DNA of 64,000 nt from the IMG/VR virus record IMGVR_UViG_3300032272_000001, positions 39,273 through 103,272 of that record. The stretch is one strand, 5' to 3'. The notes beneath the pieces were generated by a model, which saw only the letters and a program-made list of their open reading frames with translations, made no database searches and was not told the DNA's origin. Shown one piece after another: positions 3 through 10,096 of this stretch. Each line of letters opens with the position of its first letter. Within the stretch, counting starts at the first letter, position 1. Both the position numbers and the translations under genes were made by a program. Source of the stretch: a virus (Duplodnaviria; Heunggongvirae; Uroviricota; Caudoviricetes).

Positions 3-287
3 GTTTTTAAATATTGTGAAGATGAAATACTTGTAGAATTAAAACAATATCTTGTTTCTACATATGGTGAGCATTATGTGTCAACAGATTCTAAATTAGA
101 ATGTTTTGATGCATGGATTGCTCTTGGTGAATCTGGACCAACATTTCGAAATACTGCTATGAAATATTTATGGAGATATGGTAAGAAAAACGGAAAGAAT
201 AAAAAAGATCTTATGAAAGCTATGCAATATGTGATGATGTTGTTGTATGTTGAACATTATAAGGATGAACAAAATGAAAATCAGTGA
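3..287 (+). CDS. Conserved T4-like hypothetical protein (DUF3310-like), 5'-truncated by window
   Basis: Frame is open from nt 3 (VFKYCEDEILVELKQYLVSTYGEHY) into the tracked ORF; KYLWRYGKK..DLMKA motif. Confidence 0.6.
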   Translation, partial: VFKYCEDEILVELKQYLVSTYGEHYVSTDSKLECFDAWIALGESGPTFRNTAMKYLWRYGKKNGKNKKDLMKAMQYVMMLLYVEHYKDEQNENQ

Positions 288-1221: not shown

Positions 1222-3318
1222 ATGGGCTTTGAACTTAATGTTAATATTGAAGAATTAGCGAAATCAAGAAAATTATTTATTGCTACTCCTATGTACGGTG
1301 GAATGAATGCAGGAATGTATACTAGATCGATGATTGAATTGGTCAATATGCTTACAAGAATGGGTATTCCTCATGTTCCGTATTTTTTGTTTAATGAAAG
1401 TTTGATCACAAGAGCTAGAAATTACTGCTGTGACGTTTTCATGAGATCAGATTGTACACATATGATTTTTATTGATAGTGATATTGGTTTCAATCCAAAT
1501 GATGTGATTGCATTGCTTGCTATGCAAGATGATGATAGTGAATATGATATTATTGGTGGTCCTTATCCTAAGAAATGTATCTCTTGGGAAAAAATTAAGA
1601 CTGCCGTTGATAAAGGGTTTGCTGATGAAGATCCAAATCAATTAGAAAATTTTGTTGGTGATTTTGTTTTTAATCCAAAATCTGGCTCGGAAAGAATTGC
1701 TATTGGTGAACCAGCTGAAGTTTTAGAAATTGGTACTGGTTTCATGATGGTGCGAAGAAAAACACTTGAAATCATGAACGAAAAAATGCCACATTTGCTG
1801 TATAGACCAGATCATATTCGTACAGCCGATTTTGATGGGTCTCGGGAAATCATGATGTATTTCCAAGCAGAAATAGATTCTCCTACTGCTGATCAGCAAC
1901 TAATGCCTTTGATGAAACAAATTGCAGAAGGATCTGTTGATGATCCAGAACAAGAAATGCAAGAGGCTTTAGTAGCATATGAAGATATGAGAAATAAATC
2001 TTCTAAACGATATTTGTCCGAAGATTATTGGTTTTGCGCTCATAGCCAAACACAAATAGAAACGCCAGAAGGAACACGAACAATAAAAAATATTGTTGAT
2101 ACAAAATATTCTGGACCAGTATTATCAGTTGATGCTGATGGAAATTGTGTTTGGAGAAATGTTATTAATTGGTGGTCGAAACCAAACGGAAAAAGAGGTA
2201 GGCCAGAAACCAAAAAAACATGGGTAACTTTTGATACTGATTGTGATAATAACACAAAAAGTAAACCAAAAGTAACATCAGATCATAGAGTATCATATTT
2301 TGATGATTTGTTTAATCCGCAAATCAAATATATTGAAGCGAAAAATATGACTAATAAATTTTCTATTCGTAAACCACAACGAACCGAAAATCCTTTGTAT
2401 TCTACAGATCAAATTTCTATGTTGGTTGGTACTCTTCTTGGGGATTCTTCTATAGGAAAACAAGGGCAACTTACATGCCAACATTCTGATACACAAAAAG
2501 ATTATATTGAATTAAAAGCCAAGATTTTTGGTGGTAAATTTAGTGGTCCTGTAAAACAGAATGGATTTGGTGAAGGTAAATTCAAATATGTTATGCACGC
2601 TCCCATTAACGCACATACACGAAAATTCCGTGAATTGATGTATCGTGATGGTATTAAGCGCATTGACAAAATTATTGATATGATTGATGAGAAATCTTTA
2701 GCTTTTTGGTATATGGATGATGGTTGTTTACATCCTGACGGCGCTGTATATCTTGCAACTAATGGATTTACATTTGAAGAAAATGATCTTATCAAACAAA
2801 AAATGAAAGAACGTTTTGATCTTGATGTGTCTGTTGATACTAAACGGGTTAAATATGATGGGGTTGTTCGTGAGTATCCATCACTTCGTATGAAGAACAA
2901 ATCATCTAAAAAGTTTTTTGATTTGATTGCTCGTTATATTCCATCATTTATGAAATATAAATTACCAACAACACACCACAATCTCAATGATGTGTTTGAT
3001 TATAGTTCGGTAAAATTTCTTGATTTTGCTGCTTCTTATGTGAATAAGGTTCGTGAATTACCAAAACTTTCTAGTAGATTATATGATATTGAAGTGGAAG
3101 ATACACACAATTTCTTTGCATCTGGAACTTTAGTTCATAACTGTCAGAAGGTCCAGGAAATTGGTCTTAAGACGTGGCTATGCCCATGGATGAAAATGAA
3201 CCATGTAGGAACTTATGTGTTTGGTGGGTCTCTTGCTGATTTGGCAAATTTGGGTGTTTCCGCTACGGCCTGTGCTGAAACTATTAAGGCAAATAGAGAA
3301 AAGGCAAAGAAAGTATAA
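1222..3318 (+). CDS. GT-A fold glycosyltransferase-like protein interrupted by an intein
   Basis: IATPMYGG, NESLITRARN, FIDSDI (DxD), GGPYPKK, GTGFMMVRR, SEDYWF|CQK..G..TWLCPWMKMNHVG. Confidence 0.8.
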   Translation: MGFELNVNIEELAKSRKLFIATPMYGGMNAGMYTRSMIELVNMLTRMGIPHVPYFLFNESLITRARNYCCDVFMRSDCTHMIFIDSDIGFNPNDVIALLAMQDDDSEYDIIGGPYPKKCISWEKIKTAVDKGFADEDPNQLENFVGDFVFNPKSGSERIAIGEPAEVLEIGTGFMMVRRKTLEIMNEKMPHLLYRPDHIRTADFDGSREIMMYFQAEIDSPTADQQLMPLMKQIAEGSVDDPEQEMQEALVAYEDMRNKSSKRYLSEDYWFCAHSQTQIETPEGTRTIKNIVDTKYSGPVLSVDADGNCVWRNVINWWSKPNGKRGRPETKKTWVTFDTDCDNNTKSKPKVTSDHRVSYFDDLFNPQIKYIEAKNMTNKFSIRKPQRTENPLYSTDQISMLVGTLLGDSSIGKQGQLTCQHSDTQKDYIELKAKIFGGKFSGPVKQNGFGEGKFKYVMHAPINAHTRKFRELMYRDGIKRIDKIIDMIDEKSLAFWYMDDGCLHPDGAVYLATNGFTFEENDLIKQKMKERFDLDVSVDTKRVKYDGVVREYPSLRMKNKSSKKFFDLIARYIPSFMKYKLPTTHHNLNDVFDYSSVKFLDFAASYVNKVRELPKLSSRLYDIEVEDTHNFFASGTLVHNCQKVQEIGLKTWLCPWMKMNHVGTYVFGGSLADLANLGVSATACAETIKANREKAKKV
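2035..3141 (+). mobile_element. Intein (369 aa) with LAGLIDADG homing endonuclease
   Basis: Starts C (CAHSQTQIET), block B TSDHR, LAGLIDADG blocks VGTLLGDSSI and LAFWYMDDG, block F LYDIEVEDTHNFFA, ends VHN followed by Cys+1. Confidence 0.93.
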
Positions 3319-3419: not shown

Positions 3420-4088
3420 ATGATTATATCAAAAGAAACAATAGCAGTATTACAAAATTTTCAGACTATTAATCCGTCTATTATTTTACGCGAAGGTAAC
3501 GTAATTGCAACACAAACCCCTAGCGATACAATTCATGCTAGGGCAACAATTGAGGATGAATTTCCAAGAACAATTCCAATTTATGATCTGAATAAATTTC
3601 TTGGTATTCTTGCACTAACAAAAGAAGATAGTGATATCGAATTTAGTGAACGGTATATGACTATCACTCAAGGAAAATCGACTGTTAGATACGCATATAC
3701 TTCTGAAAGCCAAATCGTATCACCACCAATCGATAAAACTATAAATATTAGTAATCCTGATGTTACATTCGAACTAACACAAGAAGTGTGGTCAAGACTT
3801 TCTAACGCAATGCGTGTTATGGGATTTTCTGAATTTGCCTTTGTTGGTGAGGATGGAATACTTAGTATCCAAGCTCTTAGCACTAAAAACGATTCATCTG
3901 ATACGTATTCAACAGATATTGGCGAAACAGATAAAACATTTTCTTGTGTAATAGAAGCAACAAATATGAGAATTATCCCTGGTAATTATTCTGTATCTGT
4001 GCTAAGTAAAGGATTATCACATTTTAAAGGAGATATCGCAGAATATTGGATTGGTATTTCCACAAGATCAACATTTGGAGAAGAATAA
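3420..4088 (+). CDS. 45: Sliding clamp (T4 gp45-like)
   Basis: MIISKETIAVLQNFQTINPSI, IYDLNKFLG, NMRIIPGNYSV. Confidence 0.93.
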   Translation: MIISKETIAVLQNFQTINPSIILREGNVIATQTPSDTIHARATIEDEFPRTIPIYDLNKFLGILALTKEDSDIEFSERYMTITQGKSTVRYAYTSESQIVSPPIDKTINISNPDVTFELTQEVWSRLSNAMRVMGFSEFAFVGEDGILSIQALSTKNDSSDTYSTDIGETDKTFSCVIEATNMRIIPGNYSVSVLSKGLSHFKGDIAEYWIGISTRSTFGEE

Positions 4089-4511
4089 ATGAATAGTTTT
4101 TATGTAACAAATGAAATTAATGCTGTTGACTATAAAATTGCTGCTGAATCGAATAATTATTATCATTATAAGGAATATGCAAAATCATACAATAAAATGA
4201 AGGATTCGATTAATTATTGGTATAATGCATATCTTACAGCGCAAAATAAATTGATAGAAGCTGAAAGAAAAATCGAAGAATTAGAAAAACAAATAGATTC
4301 AAAAGAAGAAACTTTTATTGTGGATGGTGCTGAATATACAGTAACAAGAATTGTTTGTAATGGTAATTCTTACAATTTGATTAAAGGACCAAATTTAGAA
4401 ATGATGACAACATCATTGGTTGACGAACATATTATAAGAAAGTATACTGCTTATACTGCTAAGTCTACAGATGAAATAGGTGTTGCTCTAGAGAAAATGA
4501 AAGAATTTTAA
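4089..4511 (+). CDS. Hypothetical protein (coiled coil)
   Basis: ORF track, abuts neighbours. Confidence 0.55.
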   Translation: MNSFYVTNEINAVDYKIAAESNNYYHYKEYAKSYNKMKDSINYWYNAYLTAQNKLIEAERKIEELEKQIDSKEETFIVDGAEYTVTRIVCNGNSYNLIKGPNLEMMTTSLVDEHIIRKYTAYTAKSTDEIGVALEKMKEF

Positions 4512-4513
4512 TT

Positions 4514-4966
4514 ATGGATACTATTATTTTTGATTTTGATGGTACGCTTTGTGATATTTCTCATCGCCTGCATCATATTAAAGGACCACAAAAGAATTGG
4601 GATGCGTTTTATGCTGATTGTGATAAAGATGTTCCGAAACCACATATTATTGCGATGTTGAATGCTTCCTTAGAACAAGGTTATAATGTTGAGATTTGGA
4701 CAGGAAGAACTGAAGCTGTTTTAGAAAAATCACATAAATGGTTATATAAAAATGGTGTTCCTGGATTTCGAAAAGAAAGCTTATGTATGCGCCCTCCTGG
4801 AAATTATACGCCAGACCATATTCTTAAAAAAGAATGGTTGGATGAATTTATGAGTTATAATGCATATGCTCCATTATGTGTGTTTGAAGATAGACAACGT
4901 GTTATCGATATGTGGAAAGACAATAATGTTTTGTGTTTTCCAGTAGATCCATGGAAAGAGGAATAA
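4514..4966 (+). CDS. HAD phosphatase resembling the 3'-phosphatase domain of PseT/Pnkp
   Basis: DFDGTL, IWTGR, LCMRP, VFEDR motifs. Confidence 0.85.
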   Translation: MDTIIFDFDGTLCDISHRLHHIKGPQKNWDAFYADCDKDVPKPHIIAMLNASLEQGYNVEIWTGRTEAVLEKSHKWLYKNGVPGFRKESLCMRPPGNYTPDHILKKEWLDEFMSYNAYAPLCVFEDRQRVIDMWKDNNVLCFPVDPWKEE

Positions 4967-4970
4967 AGTT

Positions 4971-5783
4971 ATGAAAGAAGAATATAATAAAATTGTCCTA
5001 GATTATCTATCAGAGAAAATTATTTTTAATAATATATATGGGTTCTTGGGCGGAAAAGGTTTTAAAGTAGTTTTCGAATCTATGTCAATAGAAGAAAAAA
5101 TGTTTCTTTTATGTTCTATTAGCTCAGGTGATAATGATAATTTTTGGAAAAAACTTGGATACGATACTTCTAGTAAAGAATATCACGATATTATTCAACA
5201 TGAATGCGATATCATCAATATCTCTGGGCGATCAAATTTATGGGACCATATTAATGCATTGATAGAATATTATGATTCTATGAATTTGATCGGGCGATCC
5301 AATCAGAGCACAATCAAGGAATATCAGTTAAAATATGATCTATTATTTGATAGAAGAGAAATTTTCTTTCTTAATAGACATTTAAGTATTCATAAATCCA
5401 AAACAGAAGAAAATCACAACATACAACCTACACCTATGTGTATTATTGATTTTTATGGGTTTATTTCGGATCATATTCATCATAATATATTGCGCTACAC
5501 TATTAAAAATCACTGTAGTGAAAATGCAATCGCAGCCACCAACCAGGAAATTCCTACTATTATCGATGATATCGAAGAAGGAAATATTGAAGAAGCACTG
5601 AATGGTATTGTTCAAGAATTTGAACTCGCCCTGAAAGAAGTTGAAGATTGGTGTGCAGAAAACGATGGAATGAAATCAGCTCAAGATGAGTTTACTGCTT
5701 ATACTGGACAAGGTTTTTATGATGTTGGTGATTTAGATCAAGACCTTTTTACTGCGATTAATGCTGTTAAAACAATTAACTGA
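4971..5783 (+). CDS. Hypothetical protein, tandem paralog 1
   Basis: Starts MKEEYNKIVLDYL, ends FTAINAVKTIN. Confidence 0.7.
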   Translation: MKEEYNKIVLDYLSEKIIFNNIYGFLGGKGFKVVFESMSIEEKMFLLCSISSGDNDNFWKKLGYDTSSKEYHDIIQHECDIINISGRSNLWDHINALIEYYDSMNLIGRSNQSTIKEYQLKYDLLFDRREIFFLNRHLSIHKSKTEENHNIQPTPMCIIDFYGFISDHIHHNILRYTIKNHCSENAIAATNQEIPTIIDDIEEGNIEEALNGIVQEFELALKEVEDWCAENDGMKSAQDEFTAYTGQGFYDVGDLDQDLFTAINAVKTIN

Positions 5784-5794
5784 TAGGAAATGTT

Positions 5795-6646
5795 ATGAAA
5801 GAAGAATATAAAGAAATTGTATTGAAATATCTAGAACGACAAATGTTGTGGACATCAAGACATGTGTGCGTAAATACGTCTAATTTTGATCAAGTATTTT
5901 CGTTACTTGATCTAGAAGAACAAATGTTTCTTCTATGTTCTATTTCTTGGCAAGAACATGAGAATTTTTGGAAAATTCTTAGTATAGATATTAGACATAA
6001 AAATTTTGATGAAGTAATTAGAAATCATTGTCAAGAAATTAGAAGCAGTATTGACATCTGTGATCATAAAGACTCATTACTAGAATTCTCTTATAATCGG
6101 CATGGAAAATATAGCAATAAAAACGTCATTGAATTTTATGTTTGTGATAATGATATGAATATTGGTAGACAAGAAAAATTTCGTTTAAATGCTATATTGA
6201 GTGATCATAGATACGATGAATCAGCAGTATTCTCTAAACCTACATGTTCTGATATTATAGATTTTTATGGTTTTATTTATGATAAAATTGATTATGATAT
6301 GTTGAATTCCGTAATAGATGAATATTATATGAATCAAAAAAATGATAATTCTGTTGCTACGCAAAATCTTAGTGCTGATCTATTACGAATAGATCAACTC
6401 GAAAAAGAACTGGATAACGTTATTCAAGAAAAAGAATCTATTGAAAAACAATTAGATTCCTTTGCGTTAATGTATAAAGAATTAGTTGCAGGGATGTCGG
6501 TAAATCGCCGACTAGTTGCAGAAAGCAGTAAAGAAACTTTGAATAGCGATGTTGTTTATTATGATGAAGCACCAACTGGTGGTCCATGTGGTGCGGGTTC
6601 TTTAGACGTTTTTACTGCAATTAATGCTATTAAACCAACCAATTGA
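5795..6646 (+). CDS. Hypothetical protein, tandem paralog 2
   Basis: Starts MKEEYKEIVLKYL, shares EEQMFLLCSIS and IIDFYGFI, ends FTAINAIKPTN. Confidence 0.7.
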   Translation: MKEEYKEIVLKYLERQMLWTSRHVCVNTSNFDQVFSLLDLEEQMFLLCSISWQEHENFWKILSIDIRHKNFDEVIRNHCQEIRSSIDICDHKDSLLEFSYNRHGKYSNKNVIEFYVCDNDMNIGRQEKFRLNAILSDHRYDESAVFSKPTCSDIIDFYGFIYDKIDYDMLNSVIDEYYMNQKNDNSVATQNLSADLLRIDQLEKELDNVIQEKESIEKQLDSFALMYKELVAGMSVNRRLVAESSKETLNSDVVYYDEAPTGGPCGAGSLDVFTAINAIKPTN

Positions 6647-6657
6647 TAGGAAATACT

Positions 6658-7386
6658 ATGAAAGAAGAATATAAAGAAATTATTTTGGATTGCCTTAAGA
6701 AAAAACTTAATGATTCTTTTGGTGATTGCGATAAATATGAAACATCGATTTATTATATGCATGATACTCTTTCGATCGGAGAACAAATGTTTCTTATGAC
6801 GGAAGTTGATTATTATGATAATGTAAAATTTTGGTCTGATGTCCGTGGGAATGAGTATTGTGATTATGATGATTATTCAGTTAGATTAGAATTGACTAAA
6901 CATTTAGATAATTATACAGATGCGTGTGATTATGCTAATGATCTTTCATATCATATTAAACATAATGACCTAATAAAATGTTCATCTAATTATATTATTA
7001 GTAGTTTTTTGGCAACAAAAACAGATGAATATATACCATTACATGTGCAATTGCGTCTTCTTCAGTATGTGAATTGTGAATTGGATGGTTATAATGAAAT
7101 GAGATATGAAAATTCTCCATTGTGGTTTATTTTATCTGATATGACAGGAATTTATTTCAACAATGAAATGATTAATTATATAAATGAAAAATATGATGTT
7201 AATTCAAATATTACATCCTCTGAAGAAGACGTTACTGATTTAACTTTTATTAGTGGTATTAGCTTTGATTTTTCCAAATTAAGACCATCTGGTCCTTCGT
7301 TAAGAGATAATTCGAATTCAGATGATCTAGAACTAGTTTCTGATGATCTTGAATCGTCTATGAATTCATTTAAAGGGATTTGTTAG
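6658..7386 (+). CDS. Hypothetical protein, tandem paralog 3
   Basis: Starts MKEEYKEIILDCL after SD; GEQMFLM motif. Confidence 0.65.
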   Translation: MKEEYKEIILDCLKKKLNDSFGDCDKYETSIYYMHDTLSIGEQMFLMTEVDYYDNVKFWSDVRGNEYCDYDDYSVRLELTKHLDNYTDACDYANDLSYHIKHNDLIKCSSNYIISSFLATKTDEYIPLHVQLRLLQYVNCELDGYNEMRYENSPLWFILSDMTGIYFNNEMINYINEKYDVNSNITSSEEDVTDLTFISGISFDFSKLRPSGPSLRDNSNSDDLELVSDDLESSMNSFKGIC

Positions 7387-7712
7387 TGAAATATATCAAA
7401 AAACCTATTGTGGTTGAAGCTCATCCATGGTATGTTAATGGTGATCATCCAAATGATGGTAATCCATTCACAGAAGGTGATGTTGTTCGTTATTTCAGAC
7501 ATCCAGACATAGCCGGAAGTAGGCTATGTCAAAAATGTGAATTTAGTATGCATCACCATGGATGGATTGACAATAACACAGAAGATGGATATACTGTATG
7601 TCCTGGTGATTATATTGTGATGAAACAAGATGATTCATATGAAGTATATTCACAAAAGAATTTTCACAATCAATTCGAAAAATATGAGAAAGAAAATGAA
7701 ACAATATCATAA
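7380..7712 (+). CDS. Hypothetical phage protein (PGDY motif)
   Basis: YIKKPIVVEA...VCPGDYIV. Confidence 0.6.
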   Translation: MLVKYIKKPIVVEAHPWYVNGDHPNDGNPFTEGDVVRYFRHPDIAGSRLCQKCEFSMHHHGWIDNNTEDGYTVCPGDYIVMKQDDSYEVYSQKNFHNQFEKYEKENETIS

Positions 7713-8331
7713 AATTATTAACGTTTGGAATCGTGATCCAAACGATAAACACAGAACTCTTATTGAAAATTCGTGGGCAACTGAAGATTTTGCATATCTT
7801 GCTAATAATGAATGGACATGCACAGAAAAGGTAGATGGAACCAATATTAGAGTAATTATTGATAATGACGGTTCTGTTGAATTTCGTGGTAAAACCGATA
7901 ATGCACAAATTCCTCCGATGTTAGTGAAAGCATTAGAAGAAAAATTTCCAAAAGAAATTACCGAAAAAATTCGAGATACTTTTGGATTTGGTGTTACTCT
8001 TTATGGTGAAGGATATGGGGCAAAAATTCAGAAAGGTGGTGGAAACTATCGTTCTGATCAAGGATTTGTTTTGTTTGATATTAATGTTGATGGTATTTGG
8101 TTGCGCCGCCACGCCATTCTTGATATTGCTCATTCATTTAATATTGGTTTTGTTCCAATTATAAAAAGTTGTACTCTTCATGAAGCAATTGAAATTGCTC
8201 GTAAAGGATTTGATTCGCGGTGGGGTGATTTTCCAGCAGAAGGTTTGATTTGTAAACCTTCTGTTGAGATGAATAATCGTCTTGGACAGCGAATTATCAC
8301 AAAAATCAAAACAAAGGATTTTAAATGTTAA
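7696..8331 (+). CDS. RNA ligase (Rnl2-like nucleotidyltransferase)
   Basis: Motif I TEKVDGTN, LYGEGYG, FVLFDI, AEGLICKP, IITKIK. Confidence 0.85.
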   Translation: MKQYHKIINVWNRDPNDKHRTLIENSWATEDFAYLANNEWTCTEKVDGTNIRVIIDNDGSVEFRGKTDNAQIPPMLVKALEEKFPKEITEKIRDTFGFGVTLYGEGYGAKIQKGGGNYRSDQGFVLFDINVDGIWLRRHAILDIAHSFNIGFVPIIKSCTLHEAIEIARKGFDSRWGDFPAEGLICKPSVEMNNRLGQRIITKIKTKDFKC

Positions 8332-8603
8332 TTGCCATAGATTATGACGACACATTTACAAGAGATCCTGATGGTTGGTTAGAATTTATGATCATGATGA
8401 AACTGCGTGGACATAAATTTGTTGGATGTACCATGCGTTATGAAAAAGAAATGTTTGATGTACATCAAACATACAAAGATACATGTGATTTTGTGGTTCC
8501 AACAGGACGGAAAGCTAAACGTCGATTTTTAGCAAATATGGATATTCATCCACATGTGTGGATAGATGATATACCAGATTTTATTGTGATGGATGCGAAA
8601 TAA
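8325..8603 (+). CDS. Small HAD-like protein
   Basis: IAIDYDDTF ... VWIDD. Confidence 0.65.
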   Translation: MLIAIDYDDTFTRDPDGWLEFMIMMKLRGHKFVGCTMRYEKEMFDVHQTYKDTCDFVVPTGRKAKRRFLANMDIHPHVWIDDIPDFIVMDAK

Positions 8604-8950
8604 TGACCAAAAAAATCATACGAGAAACGATGAATCTAGAAAGCTTTTTTGAAAGTCCTGAAGCTAAAGAAAACGGTGTTCTTTTTGATGATATCATCAA
8701 TGATATCATTGATGATTTTGAGCATAATTTGTCTTTACGAATAATTGAAGATGATTCTTATGGTGTTTGTTCATACTATATCATGTATAATCGCCTAGAA
8801 ACAGATCATGAATATGCATTTCGCCTAAAGCGCGAAAAGAAGAATGATGAAAAGGCTAAAGAACTTACTGCATTTTTTGAATCCGAACAAAAAAAGAATG
8901 AGTATAATGAATATTTAAGATTGAAAAAAATATATGGAAACGATAGCTAA
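8603..8950 (+). CDS. Hypothetical protein
   Basis: ORF track, overlapping stop/start. Confidence 0.55.
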   Translation: MTKKIIRETMNLESFFESPEAKENGVLFDDIINDIIDDFEHNLSLRIIEDDSYGVCSYYIMYNRLETDHEYAFRLKREKKNDEKAKELTAFFESEQKKNEYNEYLRLKKIYGNDS

Positions 8951-9482
8951 ATTCATCAAAGAAAATTGTGTTTATGTTCCAGAAGAACCTATGTTTGGTA
9001 AAGCTCCTGGTACTAGATATAAATCACAATTTTATCTTTCTCCATTGACAACAAATGGTGCTATGATGAATTATGTATTATTGGCTTTCAATAACCTTTT
9101 GGAAGAGCATGACATAGACTTGAATACTATTCAATTTGCCGGTCAAGTGTGGTCTGCTCTTCCAATTCTTGGATGTTTATCAATGAGATATCCAGAAATA
9201 AATACATTCATTGTTCGTCAAGAACGAAAGAATTATGGCAAGAATAACATATTTGAAGGTGTTCCTGATAGAACAAAAAAAACCATTCTTGTTGATGATT
9301 TGTGTAATTCAACAAATTCTTTTGTTAGATGTAAAAGTATATTAGAAAATCATGGCATTCCTGTACATGATAACCTTCTTTGTATTTTGAATAAAAAAAA
9401 TTATAATGATGTTGATTTTATGTGGGATAAGTATTCTATGCAAAAATCTATGCATATTGTATCAAGAGATGCTGTTATATGA
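8934..9482 (+). CDS. Type I phosphoribosyltransferase (PyrE-like fold)
   Basis: IVRQERKNYG, PRPP-binding ILVDDLCNSTNS. Confidence 0.75.
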   Translation: METIAKFIKENCVYVPEEPMFGKAPGTRYKSQFYLSPLTTNGAMMNYVLLAFNNLLEEHDIDLNTIQFAGQVWSALPILGCLSMRYPEINTFIVRQERKNYGKNNIFEGVPDRTKKTILVDDLCNSTNSFVRCKSILENHGIPVHDNLLCILNKKNYNDVDFMWDKYSMQKSMHIVSRDAVI

Positions 9483-10096
9483 TTTCTGATAAGAAAGAAA
9501 TTATACGTGAATATATTAATGATCATTGTATTTTTCGTGCACACCCAAACATAAAATATTCAGAATCGTTTCCCAGAGGAACGTTTGTTTCTGCAAATCC
9601 AACAAATATTTCTGGTAATACATATCTTTTTATGTTGAAAAGATTGATGTATAATCATTTAATGATGGAATATGTATTGGATATTATTCAAAAAATGTTA
9701 CCAACAGATGATTACCAATTTGCTGGATTAGAAAATGGGTCTGTTCCATTATTAATGGCTTTACAGTCTCGGTTGCCAGAAAAGAATATTTTTAGTATTC
9801 GATCAACACGAAAAAGTTATGGTGTTATGCATTATATTAATGGGGTTCCTAATGATACTCCGGTTTTGTTTGTTGATGATTTGGTATCGTCTGGTGCATC
9901 AATGTTGAAAGCTATGCGTATATCAGCAGAAGAATTGAACTTAGATATACTTCCAACATCATTATGTATTGTGAATATGCATAATAAAGATATGATACAT
10001 TCAACAAAATTAAAATCTATTTTTTGTAAAGATGATTTTGATCTTAAATATGATAAAGAAAAGTATTGGTCCCAAAAAGACTTTGAAAGGAATTAA
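9479..10096 (+). CDS. Type I phosphoribosyltransferase (PyrE-like fold), second copy
   Basis: FAGLENGSVP, IRSTRKSYG, LFVDDLVSSGASM. Confidence 0.8.
   Translation: MISDKKEIIREYINDHCIFRAHPNIKYSESFPRGTFVSANPTNISGNTYLFMLKRLMYNHLMMEYVLDIIQKMLPTDDYQFAGLENGSVPLLMALQSRLPEKNIFSIRSTRKSYGVMHYINGVPNDTPVLFVDDLVSSGASMLKAMRISAEELNLDILPTSLCIVNMHNKDMIHSTKLKSIFCKDDFDLKYDKEKYWSQKDFERN

Follow-up and report, generated by a model that had tools for sequence, protein, structure and literature searches.

A class-1 intein with a LAGLIDADG endonuclease in a glycosyltransferase-like gene of T4-like phages that carries inteins at six sites

Introduction

Chitin synthases are glycosyltransferases of the GT-A fold. One of them, CHS2 of Podospora, carries an intein (PMC1635734). 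Among replication proteins, inteins have been recorded at several positions of the same host protein: three sites in DnaB, four in RFC-S, five in MCM and up to six in PolIII-alpha/PolB (PMC4760082). Criteria by which class-1 inteins are recognized have also been set out (PMC4031507), and we follow them here. On the side of the host enzyme, a motif set of the form R...DDD...EDY/F has been described (10.1101/2023.12.21.572611). The A197 protein of STIV is essential and has been proposed to glycosylate capsid protein, its own substrates being unproven (PMC10551542).

Here, we describe an intein-bearing gene in a 64,000-nucleotide stretch of DNA (the window) from a complete 176-kb genome of a T4-like phage, which has direct terminal repeats and comes from a sediment metagenome. 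An earlier note on this DNA had placed a single intein inside a glycosyltransferase-like gene, and had suggested that the host gene is under strong selection, for example for DNA or virion glycosylation. Positions given below are those of the window unless stated otherwise; the open reading frame, its parts, and the flanking gp45 and DUF3310 genes are all on the plus strand.

Results

The gene lies in the phage replication module, which runs gp47, gp46, peptide deformylase, DUF3310, two more genes, the glycosyltransferase (GT) reading frame and gp45, and continues further along with gp44, gp62, regA and gp43. The window opens in the 3' part of the DUF3310 gene (3..287), and the gp45 sliding clamp gene (3420..4088) follows the GT reading frame (1222-3318). 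One of the two genes between DUF3310 and the GT gene is a macro-domain gene (630-1184), which was not seen there in the corresponding locus (L003) of an 83%-identical relative. Roughly 6 kb of additional genes (4089-10096) separate gp45 from gp44, among them genes for a PNKP-type HAD phosphatase, an RNA ligase, and a phosphoribosyltransferase with a similar-looking neighbor; three proteins with similar N termini are encoded at 4971-7386. A promoter scan did no better than chance. The source contig spans the whole stretch unbroken with 0 differences and is probably the window's own source rather than an independent observation; the one DNA sequencing run that we searched, probably also the source, contained no joint across the intein.

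The 698-codon reading frame divides into a 271-residue N-extein, a 369-residue intein and a 58-residue C-extein, and splicing at SEDYWF/C...HN/CQK would give a host protein of 329 residues. The N-extein (1222..2034) makes up most of a GT-A domain, as judged from its match to PHROG 1574 (E 7e-45), its invariant columns and the predicted fold of an empty allele. It contains the motifs ATPMYGG, ESLITRARN, DxD, YPKK, GTGF and SEDY. The DxD motif, D85-S-D87 (1474..1482), is the presumed metal and nucleotide-sugar site, and both aspartates are invariant among 65 homologues. The SEDYWF motif (2017..2034), in which S266, E267, D268, Y269 and F271 are invariant, directly abuts the intein; its xED residues would form the catalytic-base region, judging from general knowledge of GT-A enzymes and from the published motif set (10.1101/2023.12.21.572611). 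The C-extein (3142..3318) begins with the +1 Cys and continues with CPW, HVG, a GGSL helix and a basic tail, and the His of HVG (His292 in spliced numbering) is a likely metal ligand. A helical hairpin of about 40 residues (1885-1995, roughly residues 222 to 258) within the extein is absent from 288-residue forms of the protein.

The insert (2035..3141) has the residues expected of a class-1 intein. It begins with Cys1 and ends in H368-N369 before C+1, it has the Thr and His of block B (TSDH at intein residues 81 to 84; 2275-2286) and the Asp of block F (LYDIEV from intein residue 349; YD at 3082-3087), and the Cys that marks class-3 inteins is missing. In its center lies a double-motif LAGLIDADG homing endonuclease domain of the I-SceI type (2416..2916), in which both motifs are intact and retain their acidic residues (GTLLGD from 2428, FWYMDDG from 2704). 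The domain matches Pfam LAGLIDADG_2 (PF03161) with E 1.5e-24 and I-SceI structures with E of about 1e-5, and the insert also matches intein structures. At its C terminus, the TIGR01443 match (E 1.1e-8) is above the cut-off. The insertion is in frame and is missing from other alleles of the host gene, including those of P0122 (the 83%-identical relative) and the cultured phages phiM12, Cr30 and DLP6; in a global alignment to P0122, the gap is exactly the 369-residue insert. The intein proposed in the earlier note is thus borne out in its boundaries, its length and its terminal residues.

We considered whether the insert might be a non-splicing or ordinary fused domain, in which case the gene would be dead or would work unspliced. 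The match to Pfam Intein_splicing (E 8.6e-6) does fall below its curated cut-off. However, the class-1 catalytic residues are all present, empty homologues number in the thousands, both exteins and the intein are under purifying selection, and the insert stands between the xED motif and CPW and HxG, whose residues are invariant. We regard such a domain as very improbable, and the insert as almost certainly a canonical class-1 intein on the strength of its residues and alleles. When the intein is compared with its two nearest counterparts at the same site (68% and 65% identical), dN comes to about 0.25 to 0.26 and dS is 1.6 to 1.7 or saturated, with the endonuclease and splicing parts behaving alike; with dS so near saturation, these values average selection on the endonuclease over a long time.

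Empty alleles, which the earlier note had proposed to search for, are abundant. A search with the N-extein returned at least 8,000 shorter homologues of 149 to 475 residues, overwhelmingly empty, so that the possibility of every homologue carrying the insert as an ordinary domain is excluded. The nearest of them, P0122, is syntenic and shares 83% identity with the N-extein. Empty alleles also occur in the cultured phages phiM12, phiM7, phiM19, phiN3, Cr30, DLP6, RHph_I1_18 and OspM_OC, none of the cultured phages has an intein in this gene, and in the three cultured-phage loci that we opened (phiM12, where the gene is SmphiM12_042, Cr30 and DLP6) the empty gene is located just upstream of gp45. 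Set against these homologues, the form with an intein at this position amounts to some 24 to 30 clusters, which agrees with the suggestion of an uncommon allele. The suggestion of strong selection on the host also stands: between this extein and that of P0122, dN is 0.14 and dS 1.9, a dN/dS of about 0.07.

Phylogenies of both partners suggest how the intein came to be distributed in this way. Both are quick trees without bootstrap, and the intein tree omits the inteins of P0021 and P0022 at this site as mis-cut or truncated. In the extein tree, our extein pairs with the empty P0122 as its sister (support 97), and occupancy of the site requires 12 gains or losses, 9 of which are forced by strong branches. 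In the intein tree, the 23 rows from this site fall into a single group (SH-aLRT 94). Inteins that form one group and yet are scattered over the host tree are as homing predicts, and we interpret the pattern as probable homing plus loss.

The site occupied here is one of six. Counting by motif anchors, we found at least 109 inteins in at least 99 metagenomic clusters or proteins of this GT gene, with 11 proteins holding two inteins each. Named by the +1 residue, the sites are 29 (11 cases), 69 (5), 70 (7), 119 (61), 272 (24; the site occupied here) and 285 (1), each count being a lower bound. The single site recognized in the earlier note stands, and five further sites, which were not visible from that one sequence, are added to it. 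Full-length and extein-only searches recovered a near-identical set of long homologues, and a PF03161-type endonuclease was annotated in all of the inteins of this gene. In the intein tree, site 29 forms one group and site 119 at least two lineages. The site-119 inteins of P0047 and P0070 end in Gln (FQ and TQ) rather than His-Asn, and other inteins of the gene end in SN, RN or KN. Among the eight columns of the GT family in which Cys is the majority residue, six are intein sites, all in windows of above-median conservation. In the literature that is open without subscription, our search turned up neither an intein in this GT family nor a paper on the family itself, and a recent survey of actinophage inteins lists 19 host proteins without it.

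Relatives of the intein occupy a range of other genes. The same lineage is present in peptide deformylase (14 proteins or clusters), where it sits inside the HExxH metal motif (QHE/CDH), and also in terminase, gp46, gp47, gp55, RegA, PhoH, UvsW, RNA ligase, adenylosuccinate synthetase, MptE-like proteins and a DUF2201 peptidase. The deformylase cases include L087, L090, L091 (4001-5074 of that locus), P0277, P0278, P0281 and P0282 as well as others, and our literature search found no paper on them; the translational repressor RegA is the host in P0261 and P0274, and the late sigma factor gp55 in P0262 and P0266. A second intein of the lineage occurs in the phage genome itself, outside the window, in the terminase large subunit (G000 C1:9378-12131; residues 486 to 847, DDLVM/C...HN/C, 34% identical). 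Because the lineage sits in proteins such as deformylase, gp55, RegA and PhoH, the intein is no sign of a DNA substrate, and the DNA-related role that the earlier note had read from it loses this support.

The host protein belongs to PHROG 1574, which has no assigned function. Invariant among the 65 homologues are DxD, RxRN, GTG, SEDY, CPW and the C-terminal His. We modeled the fold on the empty P0122, which stands in for the spliced protein, and obtained a GT-A fold (pLDDT 91) with DxD, a glycine-rich loop, xED and a C-terminal His. The proposed GT-A host, with its insertion point just after an invariant S-E-D-Y motif, is confirmed by this fold and by the invariant columns; the xED lies three residues before the insert. 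The best structural match is STIV A197 (PDB 2c0n; Z 17.4, rmsd 2.6, 171 aligned residues), followed by mimivirus R699, LH3 and Mnn9 (Z 15.1 to 15.5), and the top PDB match among DNA-acting GT-A enzymes, TarP, reaches a Z of just 11.6. Sequence comparison is less informative: in Pfam, GT62/Anp1 and GT2 stayed below curated cut-offs (best E 8e-4 and 0.012, respectively; 16.8 bits for P0122 against an Anp1 cut-off of 28.8), a genome search with PF00535 gave no match, and neither the extein nor its profile had a significant match in a sequence search of the PDB. The weak Anp1 matches agree with the fold result. One distant homologue is labeled "dpG-synthase-like," which we take to be the CDD DPM/DPG-synthase GT2 label; we rejected it as a lead to DNA modification, having found no supporting paper.

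The gene context is nearly constant downstream and variable upstream. Of the 83 loci compared, 79 contain gp45, which in 65 comes immediately after the GT gene, and DUF3310 is the usual upstream partner (65 loci). The upstream side of the GT holds an exchangeable cassette: a thymidylate-synthase-like one that includes alpha-GT and C5-MTase-like genes in 27 loci, 7-deazaguanine in 19, TET/ADDT/TAGT in 16 and none in 8, a further 12 loci being too short to tell. Since the GT stays whatever the cassette, it is not the sugar step of the cassette. A separate TAGT adjoins it in five loci. The complete 176-kb genome has no match to hydroxymethylase, TET, TAGT, Que or ADDT, and so neither a TET/JBP nor a hydroxymethylase source of hydroxymethyl-pyrimidine acceptors was found in it; as a positive control, PF12851 does match the TET in L042, and neighbor cluster 29 is TET/JBP. 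A clamp-type (gp43-like) C-terminal motif ends 5 of 5 TAGT, 10 of 10 TET and 15 of 19 C5-MTase-like proteins and none of the 82 members of this GT family, whose basic tail has a mean charge of +3.7 over the last 15 residues.

A homologue in a cyanophage has tail-collar genes, a GT2 and a sugar epimerase around it. Of 20 cellular-looking loci that we inspected, which were hand-picked and represent few lineages, 11 have a distant homologue (about 27 to 38% identity) next to an adhesin gene that is either FHA-like with an MBG domain or of the YadA type (L163, L165-L167, L169, L177 and L187; L186, L192, L193 and L198), and 8 of the 11 were also picked up by an automatic filter on composition. These homologues, from Bradyrhizobium, Dyella, Rhodanobacter and Xenophilus, share the motif set and are candidate adhesin glycosyltransferases.

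Discussion

The intein itself is chemically ordinary, and the interest lies in its host gene. After translation, the intein would excise itself by thioester formation at Cys1, transfer to the +1 Cys and Asn cyclization, thereby joining the xED motif to the segment with the C-terminal His and restoring a 329-residue GT-A enzyme. Since the intein parts these two segments, splicing should be required for activity. The endonuclease would cut empty alleles of co-infecting relatives and the intein would be copied in by recombination, and we consider the intein probably still mobile. We attribute the six sites to the high conservation of a core gene combined with its supply of cysteines, in which a conserved Cys provides the +1 nucleophile within an invariant motif. 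The gene would gather inteins because it belongs to the conserved core of a very large T4-like group and because nearly every conserved Cys in it may serve in this way.

What does the host enzyme modify? The fold neighbors, the adhesin-flanking bacterial relatives, the cyanophage homologue and the missing clamp-type tail together make a protein acceptor the best guess, although the acceptor does not follow from a shared fold. We favor, with about even confidence, a soluble metal-dependent NDP-sugar transferase that would use a host-made donor and a protein acceptor, whether this belongs to the virion or its fibers or instead to the host or the replication stage. The phage genome also encodes many hexapeptide-repeat solenoid paralogues outside the window (G000 C1:110283-134524), and to name them as acceptors would be pure speculation. 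To the combined explanation, intein and host function together, we assign a probability of roughly 0.6. The position between gp46 and gp45 in the replication module and the basic tail fit work on nucleic acid better than work on the virion. A more speculative and less probable version of the idea is that this is an essential core GT of the large T4-like group (phiM12, Cr30, DLP6 and thousands of uncultured relatives), which might glycosylate a replication-, transcription- or host-takeover-stage protein, or might act on a canonical base of DNA in a way that has yet to be described.

The most serious alternative, which we nevertheless consider unlikely, is that the enzyme works at the replication stage and glycosylates DNA or RNA, either at a canonical base or at the backbone, independently of the variable cassettes. 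Such a role would account for the fixed gp46-gp45 position, where the GT is often the last gene after DNA-modification cassettes, for an R...DxD...EDY motif set like that of phage DNA GT-A enzymes and JGT, and for the basic tail; the usual neighbor DUF3310 is also found fused to nucleotide kinases. It is harder to reconcile with a GT that accompanies any cassette type or none, with a complete genome that has none of the modification genes named above, and with the lack of a clamp-type tail. Nor did we detect profile similarity to neighboring TAGTs (hhalign probability 0.3%; the test is weak, the TAGT alignment being shallow with only 5 close sequences) or a phrog_842 match that would place the extein in the TAGT/JGT family. 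In addition, phiN3 has the gene, and the migration of its DNA matches that of unmodified lambda DNA (PMC5646251), although a neutral or rare sugar could escape this observation. The DNA glycosylation suggested in the earlier note is disfavored on these grounds, and virion glycosylation, its other example, stays a candidate.

Modification of the cell envelope, at a glycan or a lipid-linked sugar (LPS, EPS or S-layer glycan), serving to block superinfection or change a receptor, is less probable still. A role of this kind has been proposed for other phage GTs (PMC7029224), weak matches to Anp1, GT21 and GT2 point the same way, and distant homologues are fused to GT2 or DUF5672 domains. Surface-modifying phage GTs, however, are sporadic and lie in hypervariable regions, whereas this GT is near constant in place and sequence, lacks partner sugar genes in phiM12, Cr30 and DLP6, and occurs in phages whose hosts differ in their envelopes. 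Glycosylation of a small molecule or nucleotide, for instance together with DUF3310 and for nucleotide-pool control or counter-defense, seems to us a poor prospect. DUF3310 is a neighbor at 65 of the 83 loci and MazG-like and dCTP-deaminase-like genes are frequent nearby, but the phiM12 locus has no DUF3310-cluster gene, gp46 and gp45 flanking the GT directly, and no small-molecule structural neighbor comes near the top of the fold ranking. A protein-directed enzyme remains the reading that we prefer.

These results bear on both phage inteins and phage glycosyltransferases. A "hypothetical" gene of about 300 residues equals the top DNA-polymerase site count of a major survey (PMC4760082), which shows that intein hotspots in phages depend on conservation, on the supply of cysteines and on the size of the population, and not on DNA chemistry. 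The family provides more than 100 natural inteins with their endonucleases, including alleles one codon apart, for studies of site switching. It also singles out for study a conserved, uncharacterized GT of phiM12- and Cr30-type phages. Should the core-gene version hold, the T4 superfamily would contain an unrecognized core modification step that is open to test in cultured phages.

As an intein host, the gene resembles the intein-rich replication proteins (PMC4760082) in that independent sites are clustered at catalytic motifs and inteins group by site, and differs from them in concentrating six sites in a protein of about 290 to 330 residues that is neither an ATPase nor a polymerase, all filled from one intein lineage. 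The cultured class-1 endonuclease inteins of SelmaRatti and Gostya9 (T5-like DNA polymerase), KLEP7 (RNA ligase) and fHe-Yen9-02 (UvsX) share the Cys1...His-Asn/Cys+1 chemistry, the LAGLIDADG endonuclease and full-length similarity, but are only 25 to 27% identical and occupy other host genes. Podospora CHS2 likewise has its intein in a glycosyltransferase, as a single fungal case in an unrelated host family. As an enzyme, the phage GT shares the GT-A fold, the R...D-x-D...EDY pattern and a location near gp45 with TAGT/JGT (10.1101/2023.12.21.572611), whereas it lacks their clamp-type tail and does not need TET or hydroxymethylase genes. With the GT-A domains of STIV A197, LH3/ColGalT1, R699 and Mnn9 it has the fold, DxD and xED in common, at 11 to 21% identity, and it differs from them in its extra insertions and its basic tail.
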